Virus record (IMG/VR): IMGVR_UViG_3300045988_103014
Location: 13,780 to 77,779 of that record
From: a virus
Direction: 5' to 3' (one strand)
Length of the DNA: 64,000 bases
Part shown: positions 23,433 through 25,190 of the stretch, in pieces
Layout: every line of letters starts with the position of its first letter
How positions within the stretch are numbered: the first letter of the stretch is position 1
Translations under genes and position numbers: made by a program
Notes under the pieces: generated by a model
The model's database searches: none
Told to the model about the DNA's origin: nothing
What the model saw: the letters and a program-made list of their open reading frames with translations, nothing else

Positions 23433-23549
23433 AGGGAAGTAGCTCAATGGTAGAGCGCGTTATAGACTTTGTCTTGATTAAGACAGCGACAGCAATTCTT
23501 TCTTTGCATGAGGAGCACGATGTTGCAGGTTCGAATCCTGTCTTCCCTG
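23433..23549 (+). tRNA. tRNA gene with ~45-nt insertion between D-arm and T-arm (intron-like or pseudogene); anticodon unresolved
   Basis: perfect acceptor AGGGAAG/CTTCCCT, canonical D-arm GCTCAATGGTAGAGC and T-arm GCAGG-TTCGAAT-CCTGT, but 117 nt long; internal hairpin TGTCTTgattAAGACA. Confidence 0.45.
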
Positions 23550-23848
23550 CTCAGTCCTATTGTTAGTTGAATGACTTAAAACAGTACAACTAAACCCTGA
23601 AGGACAACTGGTGGAGCAAACCCGGTGGATATTCTAGAAGGTCAAAGAATAGTCCGTAAAACTATTCAAAAAGTCTGGAGTACAAAATTTGAAGTTTGCA
23701 CAGACAAATCGAGTGGCTGTCGTAATAGACCTGGTCCACCACCCGGTACTCAAGGCGAGTGAGTCTAAAAAGCTGGGGAACTCCAGGGATATACCCTGCA
23801 AGGGCGGGTTGAGCCGCCCAATGTATAGCAACCACAAGGAGAACGAAA

Positions 23849-24088
23849 ATGACTAAAAAGGTTTTAATTGGTACTATTGATTCGGTCAAGAAGTTCGTAA
23901 ATATCACAACTAAGCAGTCTTTTGATATTGACCTTGTAAGCGGTCGATATGTCATTGATGCGAAGTCTATTATGGGTATTTTCAGCCTTGACTTAACAAA
24001 GCCTATTGAGTTACGAATACAGGAAGATGCTGATGCAGCAGAAGTTGAGACTTTCCTTAACGAGATTTCCTTTGTACTCGTAGATTAA
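23849..24088 (+). CDS. hypothetical protein (79 aa)
   Basis: RBS AAGGAGAA. Confidence 0.5.
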   Translation: MTKKVLIGTIDSVKKFVNITTKQSFDIDLVSGRYVIDAKSIMGIFSLDLTKPIELRIQEDADAAEVETFLNEISFVLVD

Positions 24089-24090
24089 AC

Positions 24091-24622
24091 GGACCGTTAG
24101 CTCAATAGGTTAGAGCATCCGGCTCATATCAAGCAATATCATATCTGTGAAAAAAATATGATTGATACAAATATTATTGGTGTAATTACCGAATTAAAAT
24201 GTAAAACTTATTTTTTGGAATTAGGATATACAGTATCCACTCCAGAAAATCCAGCTCGTTATGATTTTATTCTTGATACTGGAGATAAATTATTGAAGGT
24301 TCAGGTAAAAACTTGTAATTGTGATGGAGAAAAACTAAATTTTGCAACTTGTTCAAGTCATTTTGTGAATGGAAAAGTAACTCACACTGACTATAAAACT
24401 GATAACATTGATTATTTTTGCACTTGGTTTGAAAATGAATGTTATTTAGTACCTGTCTCTGAGTGTGGGAAAACTGAAAAGAATTTACGATTAGTTCCTA
24501 CAAAAAATGGACAGGTAAAAGGCATTTATTTTGCTAAGGATTATATTGCTAAGGAGGTTATTCGCAGATAAGTGAACCAGATATGAACCGGACGGCTCTG
24601 GGTTCAAATCCCAGGCGGTCCA
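24091..24622 (+). tRNA. split tRNA-Met/Ile2(CAT): exon 1 24091-24128, 458-nt intervening sequence 24129-24586 in anticodon loop (37/38), exon 2 24587-24622
   Basis: exon 1 = GGACCGT-TA-GCTCAATAGGTTAGAGC-A-TCCGG-CTCATA; exon 2 = A-CCGGA-CGGCT-CTGGG-TTCAAAT-CCCAG-GCGGTCC-A; joined loop CTCATAA; acceptor and anticodon stems only pair across the two pieces. Confidence 0.6.
24158..24571 (+). CDS. intron-encoded protein, putative PD-(D/E)XK-type endonuclease with Cys-rich C-terminus (137 aa)
   Basis: lies wholly inside the tRNA intervening sequence; motif YDFILDTGDKLLKVQVKT (D...QVK); CNCDGEK...C...C cluster. Confidence 0.5.
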   Translation: MIDTNIIGVITELKCKTYFLELGYTVSTPENPARYDFILDTGDKLLKVQVKTCNCDGEKLNFATCSSHFVNGKVTHTDYKTDNIDYFCTWFENECYLVPVSECGKTEKNLRLVPTKNGQVKGIYFAKDYIAKEVIRR

Positions 24623-24629
24623 CTTATAT

Positions 24630-24702
24630 GACGATGTAGCCAAGCTGGTTAAGGCAACGGACTGCAACTCCGTGACCGTGAGTTCGAATCTCACTATCGT
24701 CT
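24630..24702 (+). tRNA. tRNA-Cys(GCA)
   Basis: 3-bp D-stem, anticodon stem ACGGA/TCCGT loop CTGCAAC, T-loop TTCGAAT. Confidence 0.8.
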
Positions 24703-25058
24703 CTAGCGCGAAAGGCGCGATTAAATAATGGAACAGACTATAAATGAAGTTCACGGTGCTCAAGCTTAAACCGGACTGCACAAGAGTCTATTGGAAAGTA
24801 TAACTCTGGCTCGCAACCGAAAATGTTGAAATCCAAATCTAAATTGTGCGGGACACGCCCCATTGAAAACCTAGCGAGGAAGGAGTTGCGCTGCAATCAC
24901 TCCACTCTATTGTGCGGATAGTAGAAAAGCAGGACTGGCGGTCACCTGCTCTCGCGGAAAGTAAGGCGTGTTTAATTTATTTTGGGATAGTTACGGCGTG
25001 TTATATAATGCTGAGGGCGACTATCATATGCGAAAGGGTGGGGCATCGCATAAAATAA

Positions 25059-25190
25059 CGGTGAGTGGCGGAATTGGGAGACGCAGAGGAACCCTTCAAC
25101 GGGTTTTGACAAAAACCGCGACTGCAATTTAGCTTGGACTTAAAATCCTCCGCTCGATGCAGCGTCCAGGTTCGAATCCTGGCTCACCGA
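25059..25190 (+). tRNA. tRNA-Leu(TAA) second copy carrying a 48-nt insertion (25091-25138) at the 5' side of the anticodon loop
   Basis: perfect acceptor CGGTGAG/CTCACCG, anticodon stem GAGGA/TCCTC intact around insertion, loop CTTAAAA, long variable arm, T-loop TTCGAAT. Confidence 0.5.

Follow-up and report, generated by a model that had tools for sequence, protein, structure and literature searches.

Y RNAs are typically encoded beside Ro60, phages included, and are tRNA mimics (PMC4201824; PMC12135203). The mimicry itself being already known, interest attaches to where such RNAs originate and what their tRNA-like part does. We analysed a window of 64 kilobases (kb; 64,000 nucleotides, positions 13,780 to 77,779 of IMG/VR record IMGVR_UViG_3300045988_103014) from a large gut phage with a whole genome of 194 kb. 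Besides 34 ordinary tRNA genes (ARAGORN default), it carries two plus-strand tRNA-like genes with an extra arm: gene 1 (23433-23549), whose 45-nucleotide (nt) arm at 23461-23505 was recognized by sequence reading and motif search, and gene 2 (25059-25190), whose 48-nt arm at 25091-25138 was recovered in the same ways and by ARAGORN in intron mode. On our reading, tRNA-shaped Y RNAs are a likelier identity for both than tRNAs interrupted by ordinary introns. Ten public contigs from gut metagenomes are 100% identical to the region, while a search of annotated phage records gave no close relative of the window; comparisons therefore use contigs with related RNAs or proteins, denoted by L-numbers (L125, L236, L404 and so on), from a clade of roughly 190-kb gut phages.

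In YrlA-type Y RNAs (RF02553; Chen et al. 2014, PMC4201824) a domain of T-arm, D-arm and acceptor stem is joined, through a 3-base-pair (bp) remnant of the anticodon stem, to a presumed Ro60 handle. Genes 1 and 2 share this plan, also lie near a Ro60-type gene in a phage, and the window contains a member of the YrlA type at 947-1079. Unlike YrlA, the two genes end at a normal 7-bp acceptor stem and their handle is closed by a tetraloop, which amounts to a circular permutation. The anticodon hairpin of gene 2 is moreover complete and its variable arm of the Leu type; the motif is NNNAC-N-GCAAU and not GNCGAAN0-1G, and the presumed partner is a very divergent Ro60 (DUF2828/DUF7788, not TROVE). 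The Y RNA of M. smegmatis is similar in that its acceptor end is open and accessible to tRNA enzymes, as it would be here, where one gene 1 homolog (in L169) encodes CCA. In M. smegmatis, however, the open end comes from loop cleavage and leaves a two-piece RNA, whereas the genes described here encode such an end directly and close the handle as a hairpin.

The Rfam tRNA model (RF00005; gathering score 29) recognizes gene 1 with 49.7 bits, but 56 nt stand in a place for which it provides 11; this agrees with a first-pass annotation of the window that had described a 117-nt gene with acceptor, D- and T-arms and an extra hairpin. By cloverleaf and score threshold both genes fall among tRNAs, gene 1 through Rfam and gene 2 through ARAGORN intron mode only. 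The stems of gene 1 are AGGGAAG/CUUCCCU (acceptor), GCUC/GAGC (D-stem) and GCAGG/CCUGU (T-arm). Its 5′ part reads AGGGAAG-UA-GCUC-AAUGGUA-GAGC-G-CGU; the arm follows as a 9-nt leader (UAUAGACUU), a hairpin (UGUCUU-GAUU-AAGACA, 23470-23485), GCGACAGCAAUU and finally CUUUCUUU, with the motif GCGACAGCAATT directly 3′ of the hairpin (23486-23497), and after the arm come GC-AUGAGGA-GCACG, AUGUU, the T-arm and CUUCCCU-G. Without 23461-23505 the RNA is left with CGUGC-AUGAGGA-GCACG. Removal of the arms would join GAGCGCGT to GCATGAGGAGC in gene 1 (23460/23506) and GACGCAGAGGA to CTTAAAATCC in gene 2 (25090/25139), giving 72 and 84 nt, respectively. ARAGORN offered another solution for gene 1 (Cys-ACA, with a 25-nt intron and an unstructured long variable region), which we rejected as a poor fit. 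The full precursors of the two genes are not unusually stable compared with shuffled sequences (z = -0.4 and -1.75), so folding energy alone is uninformative.

Pattern scans of viral contigs revealed relatives of gene 1 in two topologies, one tRNA-like and one Y-type. The tRNA-topology relatives are L125:191-309, directly 3′ of a ROOL RNA, and L169:7805-7921, the one with an encoded CCA. The Y-topology RNAs, in L236 and L242, end at the distal stem: they start with AAGACC-UGUCAGCAAUCUUUCUU..UUGCAU..GGAGCACG, run through the T-arm, then a loop-closed acceptor stem and the D-arm, and terminate in CGU-AUUAGCG-GGUCUU. That of L236 gives a partial match to Rfam YrlA (29.8 bits, model positions 23-86). 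With the L236 and L242 RNAs re-permuted before alignment, using an artificial GAAA linker for joining, the five RNAs (gene 1, the L125 and L169 relatives and these two) align at 80% mean identity; 94.5% of cells are paired, and both sides have changed in 12 of the 29 pairs. None of 500 shuffles matches this covariation, and slid controls reach at most 51%. The arm hairpin itself covaries (UGUCUU/AAGACA versus GGUCUA/UAGACC, and others). Our own covariance model, trained on these five aligned RNAs, gives gene 1 120 bits, ordinary tRNAs at most 47 bits, and the tRNA-topology homologs in L125/L164 and in L169/L193/L272, which make three phage lineages with the window, 118-125 bits. Other searches were less productive: a first motif scan over viral contigs gave no matches, a T-arm/acceptor pattern scan of contigs returned ordinary tRNAs for the most part, and an HPr-like neighbour used as a probe found only host-like HPr proteins (at most 66% identity).

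This alignment bears on whether the arm of gene 1 could be an intron. An invariant block, GCAAU..CUUUCUU..UUGCAU..GGAGCACG, spans the proposed 3′ splice site and begins within the putative intron, where its GCAAU and CUUUCUU fall. The ‘anticodon loop’ has 7 or 8 nt and is variable (AUGAGGA, AUAUGGGA, AUUUUGGA, AUAGGGA), and the would-be triplet differs across the family (GAG, AGG) although the bodies are near-identical. In the Y-topology members the arm is the 5′/3′ terminal stem and thus not an internal spliceable segment. On these three grounds we conclude that gene 1 is in all probability not a decoding tRNA with an intron. The arm departs from the tRNA body after the same three anticodon-stem pairs that the YrlA model keeps.

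The YrlA-type Y RNA of the same phage (947-1079, plus strand) sits just 3′ of a phage promoter and matches Rfam YrlA over model positions 1-114 with 28.7 bits (local E = 1.7e-4; gathering score 69). Its terminal stem (AAGACAG/CUGUCUU) and 5′ flank (AAACAGCAAU) match the hairpin and the motif of gene 1, and RNAs akin to it occur at L127:38 and L128:554. Judged by sequence comparison, gene 1 is a circular permutation of the YrlA-type Y RNA family of related phages.

Two other places in the window recall parts of this architecture. At 5480-5530 a T-arm-like sequence (UUGGGUUCGAUUCCCAA) is followed by a 7-bp loop-closed stem (CUCGCCG-AAUUG-CGGCGAG), acceptor-closed as in YrlA, which neither ARAGORN nor Rfam calls. 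At 6026-6110, directly 3′ of a tRNA-Met (5951-6025), ACAGCAAUCUUUCUUCU resembles the conserved block of gene 1 and precedes the T-arm-like UCUGGGUUCGAAUCCCAG; we found no matching acceptor strand there, and it may be a fragment. The non-coding stretch 3′ of gene 1 (23550-23848) folds better than shuffled sequence (z = -2.9) and has no Rfam match; a 27-nt run in it is identical in L125 (639-665), so that the stretch lies 3′ of the gene 1 homolog in both phages.

Gene 2 was missed by default ARAGORN and by Rfam. In intron mode ARAGORN identified it as tRNA-Leu(taa) with a 48-nt insert at exactly 25091-25138, as the first-pass annotation had it; the hairpin drawn there is better read as GGUUUU-GACA-AAAACC (25102-25117), followed by GCGACUGCAAUU, with the motif GCGACTGCAATT at 25118-25129. 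The arm consists of 45 nt plus a duplicated GGA, and because GGA stands on both sides of the insert its boundary is ambiguous and slides by 3 nt, from 28/29 to 31/32. Outside the arm, the RNA is of class II with A73. Deletion of the arm recreates a 21-nt anticodon arm, CAGAGGACUUAAAAUCCUCCG, that is found uninterrupted in at least 120 bacterial species, and the spliced gene is 97.5% identical to bacterial tRNA-Leu genes from the D-arm through the anticodon arm. We take gene 2, by these matches, to be a genuine tRNA-Leu(UAA) body. A TTGACA in the insert was considered as a promoter and rejected by eye, as it has no acceptable -10 box. RNAalifold paired the motif with the variable arm over a long range; this pairing was not adopted, as it is not conserved in the gene 1 family.

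Orthologs of gene 2 occur in L393-L397 at 91-93% identity; they keep a 47-48-nt arm, and their flanks are unalignable with those of gene 2. Between gene 2 and these orthologs there are 4-6 differences over the 84 exon positions and 6-7 over the 48 positions of the arm. Compensatory changes affect three acceptor-stem pairs and one hairpin pair (U:A to C:G), the latter accounting for two of the arm differences, and the anticodon loop, canonical after deletion, is invariant. No intron-less allele of gene 2 was found in viral contigs. These data speak to the idea that the tRNA genes were killed by a small mobile DNA element, of which the arms would be scars or miniature derivatives tolerated through intact copies. 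The inserts of gene 2 and of two Tyr genes (described below) are indeed flanked by a direct 3-nt duplication, GGA, that resembles a target-site duplication, intact isoacceptors are present, and the endonuclease genes of larger inserts are decaying. We nevertheless regard it as very improbable: RNA and insert remain 85-95% identical while the flanks diverge beyond alignment, compensatory changes affect the acceptor stem, the T-stem and the insert hairpin, and there is no duplication at gene 1 or at the Asn-like gene of L404. The interruptions had been suspected to be systematic and not random decay. This is borne out by a 12-mer common to both genes, by inserts that orthologs of both genes retain in other phages with compensatory changes, and by many more interrupted tRNA genes in related phages; covariation and compensation point to selection on the interrupted genes.

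The arms of genes 1 and 2 have the same composition: a 6-bp hairpin capped by a tetraloop, GCGAC(A/U)GCAAUU, 7-8 nt and the lower anticodon stem. The 12-mer GCGAC(A/U)GCAATT has two matches in the 64 kb, one in each gene, both directly 3′ of the hairpin; the two inserts are, by sequence, homologous and one kind of element. In both genes the upper anticodon stem takes its 5′ strand from far upstream, and the lower stem and loop are contiguous with the 3′ strand. The insert is therefore an arm that branches off the 5′ strand of the anticodon stem after pair 29:41, and position 29/30 fits both genes. In each of them the single-stranded tract 3′ of the arm hairpin reads NNNAC-N-GCAAU. A related motif beside a closing stem, (A/U)AAC(A/C)GCAAU, recurs about 15-25 nt downstream of phage promoters; at these sites the relatives have small stem-closed RNAs, including one that immediately precedes the L125 Ro60-like gene. 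The arm is, in our assessment, a functional RNA module common to YrlA-type RNAs and tRNA-shaped genes.

The motif also changes in concert between the two genes. Orthologs of gene 2 read ACC-AUGUCUGCAAU, the motif of gene 1 homologs, and in the window phage both genes have GCGAC. This suggests a trans-acting partner that the two RNAs would share; such a partner seems likelier than gene conversion, because the hairpins beside the motif differ.

A candidate partner is encoded nearby. The plus-strand gene at 26166-27707 is placed by PHROG in phrog_850 (‘RNA-binding protein’), and in Pfam its protein matches only DUF2828, DUF7788 and, weakly, vWA. Foldseek on its AlphaFold model returned full-length Ro60/TROVE proteins as all ten best matches (E from 7e-6 to 1e-3), among them the Ro60 of a Thermus phage and Deinococcus Rsr; the relationship to Ro60 is visible by fold comparison only. 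The protein has many relatives at 79-87% identity. In L393-L397 the Ro60-like gene follows the gene 2 ortholog at a distance of 118-156 nt, and in the window it follows gene 2 at 975 nt; L398, which holds a Ro60-like relative, has no gene 2 ortholog. Two hallmarks of Y RNAs are accordingly present here, a location next to a Ro60 (TROVE + vWA) gene, in this case of predicted Ro60-like fold, and a tRNA-like domain with T-arm, D-arm and acceptor-type stem.

We propose that genes 1 and 2 would give rise to stable tRNA-shaped RNAs whose arm survives maturation and is the binding site of the phage Ro60-like protein. The role of a handle is proposed because the same arm is the 5′/3′ terminal stem of YrlA-type RNAs in the clade. 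The tRNA body (acceptor, D-arm and T-arm, in gene 2 also the full Leu-UAA anticodon hairpin) would be the effector or decoy part, a role modelled on bacterial Ro60-Y RNA particles. Gene 1 would then be a circularly permuted Y RNA, and gene 2 a tRNA-Leu copy converted to Y RNA use, decoding being left to the normal tRNA-Leu(UAA) that ARAGORN finds at 20060-20143. We put the chance that the arm is retained as a handle for the Ro60-like protein, making these RNAs tRNA-shaped Y RNAs, at about even, higher for gene 1 and lower for gene 2.

Several observations weigh against this proposal. The Ro60-like assignment rests on an AlphaFold model with a mean pLDDT (predicted local distance difference test) of 60, and comparison of the protein with the PDB by sequence, including a 14-sequence profile, gave no Ro60 match. 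The Ro60-binding stem of the literature is formed by the 5′ and 3′ ends and carries GNCGAAN0-1G/CGAA; terminal stems are present in the Y-topology relatives of gene 1, but a tetraloop caps the corresponding stem of genes 1 and 2. As for the motif, it is absent or only approximated by GCGAC, the sequence here being GCGAC(A/U)GCAAU or AUGUCUGCAAU. Rfam YrlA (RF02553, gathering score 69) matches neither gene, as is to be expected of permuted RNAs, which lie beyond the reach of that model. Gene 2, the Tyr(GUA) genes of L242 and L404 and the L404 Asn(GUU)-like gene all have canonical 7-nt anticodon loops that suit their type of body. Deletion of the gene 2 arm recreates the native tRNA-Leu(UAA) arm exactly, as a spliced intron would look, and the clade is full of mobile insertions in tRNA genes that bear open reading frames (ORFs).

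The last three of these observations favour the reading of the arms as introns of a new, protein-dependent class at 29/30, cut by an endonuclease that might be recruited through the hairpin-GCAAU handle and followed by rejoining of the exons by the phage RNA ligase (37203-38594, plus strand; Pfam RNA_ligase, phrog_968 at 2.1e-68), which would be needed if the arms were excised. On this view the relatives of Y topology would represent permuted tRNA genes, whose transcripts pass through a circular intermediate in the same machinery, as they do in the red alga Cyanidioschyzon. A metagenome scan added L404, in which two arm-bearing genes stand side by side: in a Tyr(GUA) the 50-nt arm is flanked by GGA and contains UCGACAGCAA, and in an Asn(GUU)-like gene the insertion at 29/30 includes UGGUAUA-GAAA-UAUACCA-UGUCUGCAAU. 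In L242 a Tyr(GUA) with the arm follows immediately on a normal Tyr(GUA), in tandem. The loops thus fit the body type in four tRNA bodies (Leu UAA, Tyr GUA twice, Asn GUU-like), one insertion site, 29/30, suits all cases, and the anticodon-stem halves separated by the arm vary between genes and remain complementary. The closed and open topologies of the same RNA would also be expected, and the phage has an RNA ligase, a metallophosphoesterase, RNase T and Thg1. However, the normal isoacceptors that stand alongside, the tRNA-Leu(UAA) at 20060 and the L242 Tyr(GUA), make the arm-bearing Leu and Tyr copies dispensable for decoding.

Mechanism is a further difficulty. Group I introns have a P3-P9 core of about 200 nt or more, with a 5′ exon ending in U (a G.U in P1) and an intron ending in G. 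Intron_gpI (RF00028) gave no match in the window at E ≤ 1 or locally at E ≤ 5, the inserts have only 45 and 48 nt, and the boundary rule fails in both genes, as exon 1 of gene 2 never ends in U and exon 1 of gene 1 ends in U with an intron also ending in U. Self-cleaving ribozymes (hammerhead, twister, pistol, hatchet, hepatitis delta virus-like) were sought with Rfam in 22800-25400 at E ≤ 5 and in the whole window at E ≤ 1, and none was found. A bulge-helix-bulge consists of a 4-bp helix between two 3-nt bulges that carry the splice sites. Inspected by hand and not with a dedicated program, no allowed boundary of gene 1, gene 2 or the Met, Asp and Trp genes forms it, exon positions -6 to -3 being unpaired with intron positions -6 to -3, and no EndA-type family (Pfam tRNA_int_endo) is present among the 26 window ORFs scanned. 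Protein-spliced tRNA introns are not known from bacteria or their viruses. Introns as such are thus a possible but distinctly less probable explanation. That both inserts are introns is not established, gene 1 belonging to a Y RNA family and the gene 2 arm being the same Y-RNA module; for gene 2, whose orthologs sit just 5′ of the Ro60-like gene, splicing of a tRNA is still conceivable, although no group I core, bulge-helix-bulge or known ribozyme is there to perform it.

Described tRNA introns offer partial parallels. The ‘enigmatic’ introns in tRNAs of Lak megaphages (Devoto et al. 2019, PMC6784885), which lend the intron reading some support, are likewise short, conserved in their cohort, missed by bacterial tRNA finders and without a known splicing mechanism. 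Compared by description, Lak phages differ in being unrelated, with 26% GC and Prevotella hosts; their inserts are in the anticodon loop, and no link to Y RNA or Ro60 is reported. The tRNA introns of archaea and eukaryotes and the permuted genes of Cyanidioschyzon merolae are also short, need no ribozyme, include position 29/30 and come in closed or open forms; unlike them, the arms here allow no bulge-helix-bulge to be drawn, no EndA homolog is among the ORFs tested, and the host is bacterial.

Between genes 1 and 2 lies a tRNA-Met(CAU) (24091-24623, plus strand; ARAGORN intron mode) with a 458-nt ORF-bearing insert of a different insertion class, so that, as first noted, three of five consecutive tRNA-like genes are interrupted. 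The ORF (24158-24571) matches PDDEXK_5 (Pfam, 9.6e-23), and its sole PDB match is 2OST (I-Ssp6803I; E = 0.083). Only about 44 of the 458 nt are non-coding, and Rfam finds no group I match. Like the group I intron of Synechocystis tRNA-fMet with its I-Ssp6803I, the Met insert thus combines an I-Ssp6803I-family (PDDEXK_5) protein with an anticodon-loop location; unlike it, the insert has no ribozyme core, and the 45-48-nt arms are far too short for one. PDDEXK_5 inserts also interrupt tRNA genes at L164:1230-1760, L125:3651-4198, 5009-5551 and 6484-7022, L130:864-1428, L142:4037-4585, L144:4962-5511, L151:5487-6029 and L169:8660-9220. All are compatible with position 36/37, with I-Ssp6803I-family ORFs, about 40-45 nt non-coding and no group I match. 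They end in a triplet that is reverse-complementary to the anticodon (AUG in Met, AAA in Lys, AAC in Asn, ACA in Thr and, with one G.U, GAU in Asp), exon and insert together pair into a long helix, and some of the ORFs are decayed (L144, L141). A wider and still more tentative version of the intron reading, which we think rather unlikely, is that the clade runs protein-dependent tRNA splicing. In that version the 29/30 arms would be introns recognized on a Ro60-like platform, with the phage RNA ligase joining the cut ends, the RNAs of YrlA topology would be permuted tRNA genes maturing via circular intermediates, and the ribozyme-less PD-(D/E)XK inserts at 36/37 the mobile form.

The gene neighbourhood bears on a different possibility. 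The Ro60-like gene opens an island of RNA-repair type (26166-51014) with Thg1 (29042-29866), DUF5688 and major-vault-protein-like (30797-33268) genes, a metallophosphoesterase, RNase T, the RNA ligase, NAD salvage genes, Band-7 and PIN-PhoH. The arm-bearing RNAs might serve as tRNA decoys or sponges without Ro60, for example absorbing host anticodon nucleases or modifying enzymes directed at Leu, Tyr or Asn tRNAs, with the arm stabilizing the RNA or barring ribosome entry. Judged from established ribosome structure, an arm at pairs 29:41 and 30:40 would be expected to collide with the P site of the 30S subunit. Intact anticodon hairpins beside a bulky arm, the island location and the coexistence of normal copies would all suit such decoys. 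We consider them improbable, since they account neither for the use of this arm as terminal stem in YrlA-type RNAs nor for the conserved place beside the Ro60-like gene, and the gene 1 family has no conserved anticodon.

If genes 1 and 2 are tRNA-shaped Y RNAs, one RNA family in both circular permutations, together with a tRNA-Leu(UAA) that has the handle at the YrlA exit point and is a neighbour of a very divergent Ro60-like gene, would mark a concrete path from tRNA to Y RNA, and the possibility arises of a Ro60 particle whose RNA is open to CCA-tailing and charging. If the arms are excised instead, this would be the first protein-dependent tRNA splicing in a bacterial virus; the wider version of that reading would further suggest an origin of bacterial Y RNAs from intron-containing or permuted tRNA genes. 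Either outcome accounts for the under-counting of tRNA-like genes by standard tRNA finders in large phages.

Related phages hold further interrupted tRNA genes of other kinds. A 49-nt insert, unlike that of gene 2, lies at 32/33 of tRNA-Leu(UAA) in L141:4212-4347, L144:4362-4497 and L242 (complement 3923-4056); it has a covarying 5-bp closing stem (GCUAG/CUAGC versus GGUCG/CGAUC) and an ACCA end like a CCA-tailed tRNA minihelix. L142 contains an interrupted Trp(CCA) with 71 nt at 33/34 (2082-2229) and a Gln(CUG) with 75 nt (12053-12202), and L152:7283-7626 is a tRNA gene with a 268-nt insert; the L142 and L152 inserts are each stem-closed, and several contain GCAAU. Two 76-77-nt tRNAs with Leu anticodons, UAA and UAG, in L018 (1152-1227 and 1778-1854) are too short for the long variable arm expected in bacterial tRNA-Leu.

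Other structured RNAs of the window include a ROOL RNA (2007-2608; Rfam, 207 bits) and a near-threshold match to drum RNA (4024-4132; 36.6 bits, gathering score 43). The ROOL RNA of L125 stops 8 nt ahead of its gene 1 homolog, and L242 holds a ROOL RNA too. A promoter-like phage element, TTGATTTTTAT(A)AAAAAATTTGTTATAAT, is repeated at 22869-22905, 26064-26100 and about 903-940; it precedes both RNA and protein genes and is kept in relatives.

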